Under the pieces are notes generated by a model. It did no database searches, was not told the origin of the DNA, and was given only the letters and a program-made list of their open reading frames with translations. Of a stretch of DNA of 64,000 nt, positions 58,406 through 64,000 are shown piece after piece. The DNA is taken from contig CM097885.1 in NCBI GenBank assembly GCA_044892525.1, positions 176,824,001 to 176,888,000 of the forward strand, written 5' to 3'. The DNA is from Schmidtea polychroa. Its lineage: Eukaryota. The position numbers were made by a program, and so were the translations under genes. How positions within the stretch are numbered: position 1 is the stretch's first letter; the number at the start of each line of letters is the position of its first letter.

Positions 58406-58849
58406 TTTTTTTGCTAAAATAGTTATATAATTAAAATTTGAAATTAATGTACTTTTAAAACTAGGGTTGAGATGGGGTACCCAAAAGATACCGCCCCATC
58501 CACTAGCGATATAAATAAATAATAATAATTACCGTTTAATTAATTGTTGATTTTGTTTTTTCAAAATTAATGGAGTTTAATGGATTTAACCCGCCTTTAA
58601 TACCCTTATGAAAATTTCCATAACCCTTTTCTGTCCTCCTCAATACAGCACTAACCAATCAAATTGATTCTTTCCGTTGACATTGAAAAGTGCAGATTCA
58701 CAAATAAAATAAAATAAAATGTTGATTATATCCATGATGAAATAAAATATTAATAATATCAGTAGTAGGATGTGAGCTCCCCAGACCATGTCCCCTCCAG
58801 ATCACATATACCCCTCCCCCCCCCCCCCCGGGAAAAAATTTTATTTTTT

Positions 58850-59740
58850 TTTTTTAGAACGACGCCTAATATTTTTAGAACTATTACGTAATCAATGCCT
58901 AATATTTTTAGAACGATGCCTAATATTTTTAGAACTATTACGTAATTTTTTTTAAATTAAGTGATCCAGCGGGGACCTACTTTTTTTCTTCCCAAAAGTA
59001 ATGTTCCCGCCAACAAATTTTATTAACCGATACCTCATCTTCAAGCTCAGTCCAAGACCTTTCGAATGAGCTATAGGTATCTTATATATCTTTAATAGTT
59101 TCAATGTTATTAACAATTGATGACCACCATCTTTTCAACGTTAAATTATTATTATTTTTCAAAATATTATTAAGTGATCCAGCGGGGACCTACTTTTTTT
59201 TCATCCCAAAAATTATTGTTCCCGCCAACATATTATATTGATCGATAGCTTATTTTAAAGCTCTGTGCAAGAACTTTCTAATGAGATATAGATTTTTATC
59301 ATACGATGACTCATCACATTTTTAGAACAAAGACAATGACTCATCACATTTTTAGAATGATGTCTAATATTTTAGAATGATGCCAAATATTTTTAGAACG
59401 ATGTCTATTATTTTTAGAATGATGTCTAATATTTTAGAATGATGCCTAATATTTTTAGAATGATTACGTCATAATTTTAGAACGATGTCTATTATTTTTA
59501 GAATGATGCCTAATATTTTTAGAATGATTACGTCATACTTTTAGAACGATGCCTAATATTTTAGAATGATGTCTATTATTTTTAGAACGATTACGTCATA
59601 CTTTTAGAACGATGCCTAATATTTTTAGAATGATGCCTAATATTTTTAGAACGATTACGTCATACTTTTAGAACGATGCCTAATATTTTTAGAATGATTA
59701 CATCATACTTTTAGAACGATGCCTAATATTTTTAGAATTA
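58850..59740. repeat. Subterminal tandem array (about 21-bp ttttagaaYgatgYctaata units) with two about 120-bp duplicated blocks
   Basis: Direct reading. The blocks start ttaagtgatccagcggggacctac at about 58957 and 59170. Confidence 0.9.
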
Positions 59741-59875
59741 ATAATTTTGTTTTAATTATCGATGATTATATAATTTGTTTAAATCATTGATTATATAATT
59801 CTTCTGTTTTAATTATAGAATACGTAATAATATAATTTTGTTTAAATCGTTGATTACATATTATTATTTTCTAAG

Positions 59876-59928
<53 letters not shown>

Positions 59929-60098
59929 GCATATATACTCCTAGTTTATCCGACAAAATATTCTGTCCCCCTATGGGTACTGCACACAAATGTACTACTC
60001 ACATTCAACAAGTCACAAGGGTACTGTTCACAAAATTACTGGTAAAAATATTCAAGACAAAACTTTCTAAATTCTAAATATTATTCTTTAAATATACA

Positions 60099-60457
60099 CT
60101 AAAATTTATTAACACATTCACATTCATCATCTCCACAGTTCATAACATTTTCAACAACATGATCTATACAATCCCTATATACACACGGTTCAGTATCCGT
60201 AAATTCCTCCATAGGTTCATCAATTTCTTGAATGCTTTCCTCATCATCTTGAGTGTTTTCTTCATCTGTTTCATCAAATTCCGAATCTTCACTCTCTGCT
60301 ACCCAGTCTATATTTAATGCGTTTGTAACAGATAATATATCCGCCTTTTTCACACCAGATATTTCTGCTAATTTTTCCAATAAAAAGTTTATTATAAATT
60401 CTAAATATTAAATAATTCGATAATTAACTAATCATATTAACCTTTTTCTGTAGTCAT
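60099..60457 (-). CDS. Spliced acidic protein (exons 60442-60457 and 60099-60400, about 105 aa)
   Basis: A 41-nt GT-AG intron (60401-60441) supplies the missing ATG: MTTEK-EFIINFLLEKLAEISG... D/E-rich middle and Cys-containing C-terminus. Confidence 0.55.
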
Positions 60458-60553
60458 TATTAGTATTTTAAAACTATAGTATATATTTGTTTATAGAAAA
60501 TATAGAATATAAGCGAAAACAAATATGACTAAATACATTTATTAAATACAACA

Positions 60554-61649: not shown

Positions 61650-62288
61650 ATGGAATTACGAAATGATGCAGTATACCAAATCGTTGGTCCAAGTGGTAGC
61701 GGGAAAACTTTATTTGTTTGTAAATTACTAAAATCAAATTTGTTTAAAACAAAATTCAACAATATTTATTGGCATAGGGGCGCCGACGAAGAACACGGAT
61801 TGACGCAATCAAGTTTCTGTCAGTTGAAAAACATGAAAATAGTAAAGGGCTTTGATAAAAACTGGTCAAGTCGTTTGAAGAAAGATGATGTCATCATTAT
61901 CGATGATTTGTATCAAGAAGCCAATAAAGAAAAGGACTTTAATAATTTATTCACAAAAATCAGCAGACATGTTGGTGTAACAGTTATTTTCATAACACAA
62001 AATCTATTTCATCAAGGTGGTGCACATCGAACACGTAATTTAAATGTACAATATTTAGTTATTTTCAAGAATCCTAGAGATGCAACTGTCATTGATTTTC
62101 TTGGACGACAAGCATACCCTAATAACCGTAATTTTCTTATCAGTGCATTTCAAGATGCCACGAAAATACCGCATGGGTATATATTTCTCGATTTCACACA
62201 ACAATGCCCTGATGATATACGGGTAAAAACAGATATTTTCAACCCAAAAGGTGCCATGGTATATAAACAAAGTTCAAAACAAAGTTGA
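61650..62288 (+). CDS. A32/FtsK-like DNA packaging ATPase
   Basis: Walker A GPSGSGKT, Walker B VIIIDD, then ISRH, VIFITQ and YLVIFKNPRD, typical of Polinton ATPases. Confidence 0.92.
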   Translation: MELRNDAVYQIVGPSGSGKTLFVCKLLKSNLFKTKFNNIYWHRGADEEHGLTQSSFCQLKNMKIVKGFDKNWSSRLKKDDVIIIDDLYQEANKEKDFNNLFTKISRHVGVTVIFITQNLFHQGGAHRTRNLNVQYLVIFKNPRDATVIDFLGRQAYPNNRNFLISAFQDATKIPHGYIFLDFTQQCPDDIRVKTDIFNPKGAMVYKQSSKQS

Positions 62289-62301
62289 AAACATATAAAT
62301 C

Positions 62302-62796
62302 ATGTTTTCAAAAACAAGGATATCGGGTAAAAAACAACCAAAAGTTCCACCAACAACTAGTTATACTCCATCTAAAGATCTTATTACAGAAAATTTTCCT
62401 GCAATGAATCTTATTTCGAAAAATCCTAAACCTAAACCTAAAAGTAAAACCACTAAGAAAGTAAAAGTTGTTAAAAATCATCGGAGTTTCCCGTTTTTCA
62501 ATACATTGTTAAAGGCATCAAGTATGAAAAGAAACAGTATTTTGCAATCTTTTCCAAATTATGTTGTCGATGATTTACTCGATATTATACTTAAAGTAGT
62601 CAAAGGCAAGATTAAAATCAGTAAATCTAAAAAGCAATTATTGAGTAAACATAGGAAACCTTTGCTATCATTAGTAAATAATAAAAATCGTCAACAAATG
62701 AGAAAAATTATATATAAACAACAAGGGGGATTTATCGGTGCATTGATACCTTTAGCAATATCATTATTAGGTGGAATAATAGGAAGTCGATCATAA
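62302..62796 (+). CDS. Basic Polinton protein with C-terminal GGF amphipathic helix (cupiennin-like / adenovirus pVI-pX analogue)
   Basis: K-rich body ending KQQGGFIGALIPLAISLLGGIIGS. Confidence 0.75.
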   Translation: MFSKTRISGKKQPKVPPTTSYTPSKDLITENFPAMNLISKNPKPKPKSKTTKKVKVVKNHRSFPFFNTLLKASSMKRNSILQSFPNYVVDDLLDIILKVVKGKIKISKSKKQLLSKHRKPLLSLVNNKNRQQMRKIIYKQQGGFIGALIPLAISLLGGIIGSRS

Positions 62797-62799
62797 ACA

Positions 62800-63027
62800 A
62801 TGGGTGCTAATCCTTCATTACCAGACATTAAATTTAATATTAAATCTTCTTGTTGTAATGGAGAAGATTTGGACGAACCCGGAAGACGAAGCCGGTTTTG
62901 GTGGAGTGGCAAAATTAAGGAAAAGAGTTCCGAATTCGAAAAAGGAAACTCAGAAGTGGTTATCAGACCAGCTTGCGTACAGTTTGAACAAACCAATGCG
63001 GAAACGATTCCCAACACGAACATATAA
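62800..63027 (+). CDS. Candidate overprinted small protein with N-myristoylation signal (MGANPS...SSCC)
   Basis: ATG lies 4 nt after the previous stop in acaATGg context. MGxxxS plus a CC pair. Overlaps the integrase start in another frame. Confidence 0.45.
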   Translation: MGANPSLPDIKFNIKSSCCNGEDLDEPGRRSRFWWSGKIKEKSSEFEKGNSEVVIRPACVQFEQTNAETIPNTNI

Positions 63028-63913
63028 AACATATGGAATAAATGATTTATGGCAAATGGATTTGATGGAGATGATACCCTATTCGAAAATTAACAATGGG
63101 TATAAATATATTTTAACATGTATTGATGTATTCAGTCGGTTTGCCCGAGCAATACCCGTCAAGGCAAAATCTGCAGATGAAATGTCCAAAGCTGTTAATC
63201 ATTTATTTAAAGATGGACATCCTAAAAACTTGCAAACTGATTTAGGTATTAATATTATTATTTTTATTATTATTATTATTATTTTAGGTAAAGAATTCTA
63301 CAACAGTAAAGTCAAGCAAATCCTCAATAAATTGAAAATAAACCATTACTCAGTACATTCTCAATACAAAGCTGCTCATGTTGAAAGATTTAACCGAACT
63401 TTGAGAGATAGATTAAAGAAATTATTCGTGCATCAAGGTAATAAAAAATGGGTATTGGTTTTACCAAAAATAATAACCAGTTATAATCACTCATCACATC
63501 AAGGACTGAATGGATTAAGGCCGATTGATATCACGTCAAAAACAATCTATTCTAAAAAACCTGAAAAAATTACAAAACCGAAATATAAAGTAGGTGACCA
63601 TGTTAGAATTAGTAAAATTAGTGCATCACCATTTATTAAAAATTTCGATACAAATTGGAGTGATGAAGTCTTTGTAATTTCAAAAATAAATACTAAACAG
63701 AATCCTGTAATGTATGTCATCAAAGATAATGATAACAATATTGTACAAGGAAAATTTTATGAGCAGGAATTACAAGTTATTCCTCCCCCAAAAGTATTTA
63801 GAATTCAGAAGATTTTGAAAACTAAAAATAAAGGCAAGGATAAACAATACTATGTCAAATGGCATGGTTATCAAAACCCATCATGGATATCAGAAAAGGA
63901 TCTAGTAAAGTGA
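62858..63913 (+). CDS. Polinton retroviral-like (rve) integrase with C-terminal chromodomain; 42-nt intron 63246-63287
   Basis: GFGGVAKL, WQMDL, CIDVFSR, LQTDLG^KEFYN after splicing, ERFNRTL and YYVKWHGY..SWI. Likely start at ATG 62858. Confidence 0.92.
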   Translation: MEKIWTNPEDEAGFGGVAKLRKRVPNSKKETQKWLSDQLAYSLNKPMRKRFPTRTYKTYGINDLWQMDLMEMIPYSKINNGYKYILTCIDVFSRFARAIPVKAKSADEMSKAVNHLFKDGHPKNLQTDLGINIIIFIIIIIILGKEFYNSKVKQILNKLKINHYSVHSQYKAAHVERFNRTLRDRLKKLFVHQGNKKWVLVLPKIITSYNHSSHQGLNGLRPIDITSKTIYSKKPEKITKPKYKVGDHVRISKISASPFIKNFDTNWSDEVFVISKINTKQNPVMYVIKDNDNNIVQGKFYEQELQVIPPPKVFRIQKILKTKNKGKDKQYYVKWHGYQNPSWISEKDLVK

Positions 63914-64000
63914 ATTTTTATACTATTTTACCAAGCAATAGTTGCCCGCTTATTCATCCAGATAATCAAGCCAGTAAATTCATGGTCAATCTCCAGAATC
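63883..64000 (+). CDS. Start of probable minor capsid (penton) protein, truncated by the window edge
   Basis: MDIRKGSSKVNFYTILPSNSCPLIHPDNQASKFMVNLQN matches the FYxxLPSN...PxN..SxF..xL N-terminus typical of Polinton minor capsid proteins. Overlaps the integrase end. Confidence 0.65.
   Translation, partial: MDIRKGSSKVNFYTILPSNSCPLIHPDNQASKFMVNLQN

Follow-up and report, generated by a model that had tools for sequence, protein, structure and literature searches.

Gene content and boundaries of the element

The right-hand edge of the window (the whole 64,000-nt stretch of DNA that was analysed) is occupied by the left part of a Polinton, and when the sequence was extended beyond the window the element was found to be 15,596 bp long, AGTAGTAG…CTACTACT, with AATATC on both flanks (Table 1). 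The left terminus begins with AGTAGTAG at 58761, directly preceded by AATATC, as described in the earlier note, and the right terminus which that note predicted, CTACTACT (window-equivalent 74349-74356) followed by a second AATATC, was found at 74349-74362. A short terminal repeat is expected at the end of an element that uses slide-back protein priming. The Polinton lies within another repeat, of which 6 bp were duplicated on insertion; two of three fetched host-repeat paralogues contain an empty site with a single AATATC, the third aligns across the site, and the chance of AATATC at one given place is ~7e-4.

Table 1. Features of the Polinton and its flanks. Positions beyond 64000 are window-equivalent; adding 176,824,000 gives contig positions.
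Feature	Position	Strand	Basis or remark
Left TSD, AATATC	58755..58760	+	Empty sites in host-repeat paralogues
Polinton, left 5,240 bp	58761..64000	+	Remainder beyond window
Left TIR, ~1.34 kb	58761..60100	+	Commonest end haplotype
Acidic reading frame	60099..60407	-	Candidate part of spliced accessory gene
102-aa accessory ORF	60554..60862	-	Beside TBP-like gene in relatives
TBP-like protein, 154 aa	61081..61545	-	PF00352 E 2.8e-15
A32/FtsK-like packaging ATPase	61650..62288	+	PF04665 E 2e-7; Walker A and B present
Basic 164-aa ORF ('cupiennin-like' label unverified)	62302..62796	+	GG motifs before hydrophobic C-terminus
RVE integrase, D-D-E motif and chromodomain	62858..63913	+	PF00665 E 4.8e-8, PF00385; motif check
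42-nt GT..AG AT-rich insert in integrase core	63246..63287	+	14-aa gap in homologues
Probable minor capsid protein (penton-like), 355 aa	63859..64000, continues to 64926	+	Upstream of MCP by one gene
120-aa basic ORF	64919-65281
Double-jelly-roll MCP, 407 aa	65278-66501		Fold
Adenain-type protease	66502-66913		PF00770; probable short intron near 5' end, with donor-like GT at 66535
Central (ATT)n tract	66942-67335		Site of arm junctions in hybrid copies
pPolB, 1336 aa	69162-73172		PF03175, six motifs
Right TIR	about 73400-74356		(ATT)n at 73565-73700; outer ~560 bp of the other end lineage
Right TSD, AATATC	74357-74362		Directly after right end

The gene set comprises pPolB, integrase, ATPase, adenain-type protease and a double-jelly-roll capsid gene, all in frames without internal stops, and the capsid, protease and pPolB genes predicted beyond the window are present there. 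The identification of an intact, capsid-encoding Polinton is supported as regards the kind of element, its completeness, its TSD and the openness of its core genes. Six of the seven full-gene copies examined have open core genes, so that the Polinton at 58761 is not exceptional in this regard. The claim that the ATPase, 164-aa, integrase and penton-like ORFs are uninterrupted holds insofar as none contains an internal stop; the integrase frame, however, likely holds an intron, because its insert is AT-rich, is bounded by GT..AG and is missing from all six homologues that cover the site (seven were tried). This insert measures 42 nt in 14 of 15 instances and 63 nt in the other, and since all 15 are stop-free multiples of three, the frame is no proof of splicing. 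Contigs of four runs presumed to be RNA, with rows at the integrase repeat skipped, contained no GT..AG joint, a result that speaks neither for nor against splicing. In the protease frame no ATG follows the upstream stop in any of 13 copies, and the gene probably begins in a short exon further upstream. For pPolB the PF03175 match (E 3.2e-28) was obtained using the C-terminal 790 aa and was missed in a Pfam scan of the whole protein; all six motifs are present, and comparison with solved structures gave no match.

The fold of the MCP is a double jelly roll. The penton-like ORF, for which the earlier label remains probable, has 71 relatives and probably encodes a minor capsid protein; a PDB profile scan and a Pfam scan were both empty, and the look-alikes of one relative belong to unnamed clusters, of which some include Preplasmiviricota members. 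The cupiennin-like label, by comparison, found no support in Pfam. A TBP-like gene had been missed earlier; the model of its product (pLDDT 96) has a fold that matches TBPs, with a TM of about 0.7 to archaeal TBP, and the protein has 97 relatives; of 56 related loci, 24 have it next to Polinton genes. The accompanying 102-aa ORF is matched in 17 of these 56 loci, and the acidic frame probably belongs to a spliced accessory gene; neither has a Pfam match. Elsewhere in the window, the description of transposase and pol ORFs as decayed fits the fragments seen in a scan of ORFs of at least 150 aa, namely pieces of RT and RNase H that are 164-296 aa long and a split ORF pair at 38033-39534.

Relatives and defective forms

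A census by two exact end motifs, covering contig C1 and part of C2 and leaving 77 of 181 ends unpaired, yielded 52 paired elements, among them seven full-gene copies (the Polinton at 58761 included). The remainder combine the same arms into capsid-only, polymerase-only or gene-less forms, mostly near unit length; 36 of the 51 other copies have no helper arm, save one with a pPolB fragment. Exact probe sites number 302 for the ATPase and 1,399 for the MCP. A direct 6-bp TSD is present in 45 of the 51 other copies, and judged by sequence the defective forms carry the ends of the helper and its integration signature. A division into two subfamilies by the 19-nt end motifs was rejected, as these track neither the interior nor the rest of the TIR.

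The capsid arms of three capsid/satellite hybrids and of capsid palindrome B8 stop within the central (ATT)n tract. Hybrids A3 and A4 have one common junction, which indicates that the recombinant itself was copied, and copy C8 retains sequence beyond the tract, so that some junction lies outside the microsatellite. Palindrome B6 carries a foreign 1.9-kb stretch in both arms with one mismatch between them; copying between repeats therefore happens somehow. In the seven gene-less copies listed there is no ORF of at least 150 aa beyond TIR read-throughs and one retro-type insert; the gene-less arm has short frames only, with which spliced genes would be compatible, and has no similarity to the helper interior beyond a ~100-bp box and microsatellites.

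Two ends of different lineage

The left TIR consists of two ~215-bp modules, short tandem repeats, (ATT)n and the ~100-bp box, and its first 52 nt are common to 32 of 103 ends. The matching right TIR that had been foreseen is indeed homologous to it, but the two ends belong to different lineages: they diverge by 20.0% over 499 aligned positions, whereas the median for 50 other copies is 1.2%, and 43 of 51 other copies have identical first 52 nt at both ends. The interior, by contrast, differs from other full-gene copies by 0-1% in the capsid arm and mostly 0.2-3% in the polymerase arm. Relative to copy A6, 3 of 596 positions differ in 73,001-73,600 and 93 of 500 from 73,801 on, and over this outer right end (73,801 on) gene-less palindrome B6 shows only 8 differences in 556 positions. 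The last ~560 bp of the Polinton resemble those of a palindromic satellite without genes, and the changeover is located at an (ATT)n tract in the right TIR. From these comparisons it is likely that the end was swapped with a gene-less satellite during copying of the Polinton; B6 is the closest among the sampled copies, and the donor end lineage may sit on full-gene copies too.

An assembly chimera of similar repeats would also produce a mismatched right end, and the 15.6-kb, highly repeated element, whose right junction was bridged by none of the short contigs of four runs, is of a kind that invites one. Yet both flanks come from one host-repeat site with the correct TSD, the foreign end is a genuine haplotype with 25 exact sites (12 of which form six matched pairs), and mixed ends together with direct TSDs occur in two further copies among the 51 (H2 and H3); a chimera is accordingly considered very improbable. 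Loose contig ends at the right junction fit the empty site of a multi-copy host repeat and are uninformative on polymorphism at the locus. No B-box was found in the TIRs, and tRNA-like or Pol III units, which appeared only as relaxed-threshold ARAGORN calls in AT-rich repeats, were discounted.

Because the two ends differ in origin, dating by TIR divergence is invalid for this element. Codon changes provide another measure: only 2 in 5,826 nt are private to the Polinton at 58761 in comparison with 12 copies, which agrees with the recent insertion proposed earlier and from which a young age is inferred. In pPolB, 10 private changes occur in 3,237 nt (10 copies compared), exceeding the capsid arm.

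The reading that we consider probable is that of a full-length Polinton with open core genes which took up its outer right end from another lineage by a template switch at the (ATT)n tract, prior to integration. In such a scheme pPolB would start at the (AGT)n ends in copying linear molecules outside the chromosomes, the ends would normally be made alike during this copying, and the mixed-end molecule would have integrated ahead of such correction. Sequence by itself gives no order of end exchange and integration. It is conceivable, though unlikely in our estimation, that the ends matched at integration and that ectopic gene conversion from some other copy replaced the right end afterwards, within the chromosome: donors could be found among related copies numbering well above a thousand, conversion would preserve the TSD, several copies have 3-12% end divergence, and the near-identical foreign stretches of B6 show that copying between repeats does occur in some way. 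Conversion would, however, have had little time in so young a copy, its tract would have had hardly any outer homology in which to close, given that the foreign haplotype comes within 14 nt of the terminus, and the junction common to A3 and A4 points instead to copying of the recombinant itself. Under the favoured template switch, and provided that the events took place in this order, a copy with two end lineages and an intact TSD captures recombination between genomes that were replicating together. Filters on TIR identity would overlook a copy of this sort, in which 20% end divergence accompanies two private changes in 5.8 kb, and dating by TIR divergence would assign it a wrong age.

Selection on virion genes and the defective population

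Non-synonymous and synonymous variants of the virion genes stand at 6:21 among shared variants and 40:39 among private ones (Fisher p 0.013), a pattern that indicates purifying selection on the virion genes; in the protease, each of the 13 variants is private and non-synonymous. The earlier note's suggestion of a possibly virion-competent copy is compatible with this selection and with the MCP fold. The full-gene copies would act in trans as the source of polymerase, integrase and capsid for the commoner capsid-only, polymerase-only and gene-less palindromic forms, the helper dependence of the last being inferred because they carry no genes. Defective copies of at least 75% of unit length make up 31 of 44, mostly without a recognisable gene, and 13 of 44 are shorter. 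Since short copies exist, a strict size floor was rejected, and the element lengths support no more than a soft mode near 13-15 kb.

Irrespective of how the end was swapped, the family might be purely intracellular, its capsid genes left from a recent viral past or serving an intracellular role and no particles being formed now, a reading to which we assign somewhat less than even probability. It accords with short copies that have near-identical ends (5.9 kb at 0.3%, 8.8 kb at 0.0%), with all three polymerase-only palindromes lying below 75% of unit length (two with a common layout), and with the available text of PMC8097293, according to which Maverick particles have not been observed. It is less easily reconciled with the purifying selection seen among shared virion-module variants, with the copying of capsid-only hybrids, or with the prevalence of near-unit-length copies that mostly lack recognisable genes. 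A natural helper-and-defective virus population might be imagined, in which full-gene Polintons co-replicate with capsid-only, polymerase-only and gene-less genomes, arms and ends are exchanged at (ATT)n hinges, and half-size units turn into inverted dimers that fit the capsid, by analogy with half-size adenovirus vectors; we regard this full picture as unlikely. Were it true, the ~14-kb gene-less palindromes would be genetic evidence for virion passage of animal Polintons. The ends, junctions and lengths of the defective forms are readable from the assembly, and a young, very abundant family with virion genes under apparent purifying selection makes particle formation and replication mode testable in one animal.

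Comparison with known systems

With Polinton/Mavericks (PMC4028283, PMC8097293) the element shares pPolB, RVE integrase, packaging ATPase, adenain protease and DJR MCP as well as (AGT)2 ends (the commonest Maverick end motif in the available text of PMC8097293), a 6-bp TSD, a length of 15.6 kb and long TIRs. It differs from known members in its homologous ends from two lineages, its TBP-like gene and the location of all core genes on one strand. The available text of PMC8097293 describes the core ORFs of intact vertebrate Mavericks as intronless, unlike the integrase and protease here with their likely, predicted introns, and gives up to about 287 copies (38 intact), far below the probe-site counts obtained here. 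The TBP-like protein has the two-repeat saddle fold of cellular TBP (PF00352), but is 154 aa long, has a shortened first repeat and forms a separate family; in the accessible part of PMC8502044 TBP is named only in figure legends, in the section on non-animal datasets.

As far as that part goes, alpha adintoviruses have the same PF03175-type PolB, integrase and virion module with small basic accessory genes, and module exchange between their lineages is reported; for the N-terminal OTU domain of their PolB, Pfam gave no family match in pPolB here, and cupiennin, PLA2X and gasderminX labels are unconfirmed. For adenovirus a genome size window of 75-105% is reported (PMC4189039), below which the shorter defective Polinton copies fall. 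Its inverted dimers, half-size units near unit length (PMC4189039), have a counterpart in the Polinton palindromes, a likeness in size that is only partly supported. Helper-dependent (gutless) adenovirus (PMC4189039) likewise has gene-less genomes with ends only; in contrast to these, the Polinton forms are natural and chromosomally integrated, and their helper dependence and packaging are putative.

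Boundaries and gene content of the element

The left terminus of the Polinton and the AATATC before it were read in the window, and the right terminus, again followed by AATATC, was found in the contig's 24 kb beyond it; with both termini located, the element is 15,596 bp long. The earlier note had predicted this right end with its target duplication, together with pPolB, an adenain-type protease and a double-jelly-roll MCP to the right of the window; all are present; its observation is real and its predictions held. The genome (781 Mb, in a few very large contigs; G+C ~28% in the window) provided paralogues of the other repeat into which the element inserted: in two of three fetched, a single AATATC joins both flanks, and in the third the alignment runs across the insertion site. 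This host repeat is possibly an LTR retrotransposon; opposite the side with the 290-aa ORF it contains broken frames that we take to be integrase-like, in which a Pfam scan found no match.

The minus strand carries two accessory frames, then a TBP-like gene; these are followed by ATPase, a basic 164-aa ORF, integrase, a penton-like ORF, a 120-aa ORF, MCP and protease, and beyond those by the (ATT)n tract, a short interval of small pieces that resemble exons, and pPolB. Pfam matches were obtained for ATPase, integrase, TBP and protease, and for pPolB in a scan of its C-terminal 790 aa, the match being missed when the whole protein was scanned. Catalytic motifs are present in the enzymes. The predicted MCP structure (pLDDT 92) matches double-jelly-roll proteins of iridovirus, PBCV-1 and virophage (best E 1.9e-17). 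For the ORF previously named penton-like, the position agrees with the gene order in PMC4028283 and 71 relatives exist, but Pfam and PDB scans were both empty; the name cupiennin-like for the 164-aa ORF found no support in any analysis run. The element is a Polinton by all core tests other than that of the penton, which is putative.

Positions of features in the window, the element and related copies (the window is G000:C1:176824001-176888000; numbers above 64,000 extend its numbering past the right edge; L-handles are fetched genome stretches with their own coordinates, L011 and L012 covering this element and its right flank)
Feature	Position (strand)	Observation
Two overlapping frames	38033-39534 (-)	within G+C-rich stretch; presumably transposase-like; Pfam scan without match
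MFS transporter frame	41454-42875 (+)	473 aa, stop-free, apparently intronless (PF07690, E 9e-31)
Host repeat, parts	56960-58760; L012:6357-8554	multi-copy, 327 candidates
Host-repeat ORF	57075-57947 (-)	290 aa; weak exonuclease likeness (Pfam, E 0.06)
Left terminus	58761	AGTAGTAG; AATATC immediately left
~100-bp box	59930-60040	inner edge of both TIRs
~100-bp box, gene-less arm	L036:3371-3462, 5266-5351, 7100-7191	at least three more, once inverted
102-aa ORF	60554-60862 (-)	conserved; adjoins the TBP-like gene at 17 of 56 related loci
Apparent small acidic gene	67,600-68,150 (L011:9600-10000 + L012:1-150)	several short exon-like pieces between central microsatellite and pPolB
pPolB N-terminus	L012:1162-1700	Asn-rich repeat, 7 to 15 units across 7 full-gene copies, fewest in this copy
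(ATT)n tract	73,565-73,700	
Right terminus	74349-74356	CTACTACT; AATATC directly after
Foreign retro-type stretch, B6	L044:4901-6800 and mirror in L044/L045	both palindrome arms
Copies A5; C20; E3	L026/L027; L148/L149; L166-L168	flanks mutually reverse-complementary
Tandem array of terminus	G000:C1:266,246,049-266,255,877	five same-strand ends at ~2.45 kb spacing

The TBP-like protein has 97 relatives, and its modelled fold (pLDDT 96) matches TBPs. At least one Polinton core gene accompanies related genes at 24 of 56 loci, and at 18 of 26 among loci of at least 2.5 kb. In the capsid arm, the left part with the virion genes, the candidate late-promoter box YATAAAC has eight plus-strand occurrences, vs 2.8 ± 1.6 after simple shuffling in two-base blocks. 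Eleven starts were tested: the box lies at most 90 nt upstream of five (ATPase, 164-aa ORF, integrase, 120-aa ORF, MCP) and is absent from that interval at TBP, the 102-aa ORF, two penton starts, protease and pPolB.

A 42-nt GT..AG insert in the integrase frame, corresponding to a 14-residue gap in all six homologues that cover the site (seven tried), is likely an intron; because each of the 15 inserts seen in this genome has a length divisible by three and lacks a stop codon, the call derives from the homologues and not from the frame. The protease leader is 79 nt long with one and the same layout in each of 13 copies; among nine metagenomic relatives, two have at this place an ATG and then a GTAAGT resembling a donor site, and seven begin unbroken.

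This copy has two private codon changes across 5,826 coding nt from the capsid arm (vs 12 copies) and 10 across 3,237 nt of pPolB (vs 10 copies). In six virion-module genes, variants common to several copies are 6 non-synonymous and 21 synonymous (pN/pS 0.07), and private variants 40 and 39 (pN/pS 0.26; Fisher p 0.013), values to be read in light of recombination among copies and of one divergent copy that swells the private class. Protease variants comprise 13 private non-synonymous changes and no others. Six of seven full-gene copies are free of stops and frame breaks in core genes, the remaining one having a pPolB stop.

Mismatched ends and the copy family

The two TIRs of this copy align blockwise at roughly 70-88% identity. 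Within their first 700 bp, 499 positions align and 20.0% of them differ; none of the other copies among the 51 measured (one copy with too short a locus was omitted) diverges as much. The other 50 have a median of 1.2%, with two above 10%, and 43 of 51 other copies have the same first 52 nt at both ends. The interior differs from most copies by 0-1% in the capsid arm and mostly 0.2-3% in the polymerase arm, the right part with pPolB. The right part tracks full-gene copy A6 as far as 73,600 (3 differences/596), but from 73,801 it shows 93/500 differences from A6 and only 8/556 from B6, a gene-less palindrome. The foreign right-end haplotype has 25 exact sites in the genome, 12 of them forming six matched pairs. 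An assembly chimera is a very improbable source of this end; two further mixed-end copies, H2 and H3, have direct TSDs. Acquisition of the foreign end by conversion after integration we consider unlikely.

A census seeded with two exact end motifs (127 and 169 sites), over contig C1 and C2 to 157.6 Mb, where both motif lists are complete, gave 181 ends, which form 52 pairs, all examined, and leave 77 unpaired. The copies comprise seven with capsid and polymerase arms (15.6-17.2 kb), three with capsid and gene-less arms (14.7-15.3 kb), two with a capsid arm and an inverted partial repeat (12.6 and 14.4 kb), three polymerase palindromes (8.1-11.3 kb), 36 of gene-less types (median 13.4 kb; one carries a pPolB fragment) and one complex copy. 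A direct 6-bp TSD flanks 45 of 51 other copies, and the palindromes are therefore real insertions; A5, C20 and E3, three of the six others, appear from their flanks to be larger inverted duplications or assembly fold-backs. The capsid arms of three hybrids (A3, A4, B5) and of the capsid palindrome B8 stop within the central (ATT)n tract, and the junction is the same in A3 and A4; C8 is an exception to this pattern. With 1 mismatch in 1,900 bp between the foreign stretches in the two arms of B6, a retro-type insertion was likely followed by copying of one arm over the other. The ~100-bp TIR box is a candidate cis signal.

In the genome, the ATPase probe has 302 exact sites, the pPolB probe 90 and the probe for the gene-less arm 1,673; an MCP probe that differs from this copy by one letter has 1,399 with one mismatch allowed. 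All are probe counts and not copy numbers. At 17 of the first 100 ATPase-probe sites the pPolB probe lies 5-14 kb downstream; five pairs are inverted.

The account we favour, and regard as probable, starts from the general model of Polinton replication: pPolB would copy linear genomes from their (AGT)n ends, switching template at common (ATT)n tracts, the two ends would normally become equal, and integration would follow and create a 6-bp TSD. In this copy, one end of another lineage would have been carried into the chromosome.

Comparison with known systems

According to PMC4189039, adenovirus genomes rearrange when they are shorter than 75% of unit length, and a half-size vector is packaged in direct and inverted dimers. 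By analogy, the defective forms might be sized for the capsid, a reading that we consider unlikely. In its favour, 31 of 44 (complex copy omitted) are at least 75% as long as the 16.3-kb median, one 1.1-kb spacing class takes in 18 of 32 arm-probe pairs, and the seven gene-less copies under 10 kb have, by inspection, no common junction; against it, short copies with near-identical ends occur, and all three polymerase palindromes lie below 75%, two with the same layout.

A literature search, with Repbase entries, subscription papers and supplements outside its scope, found no paper dedicated to Polintons with mismatched ends, to their gene-less palindromic satellites or to an animal-Polinton TBP gene. 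TBP is named in the figure legends of an adintovirus study (PMC8502044) and its preprint, and PMC8532177 reports piRNA repression of Polintons in a planarian; the literature covered also included PMC6431247 and 10.1101/2023.08.22.554363. Unlike intact vertebrate Mavericks, in which introns were not seen according to PMC8097293, this element has likely introns, and with these, its TBP gene, its mosaic ends and its arm-swapping family it forms a variant within the Polintons.
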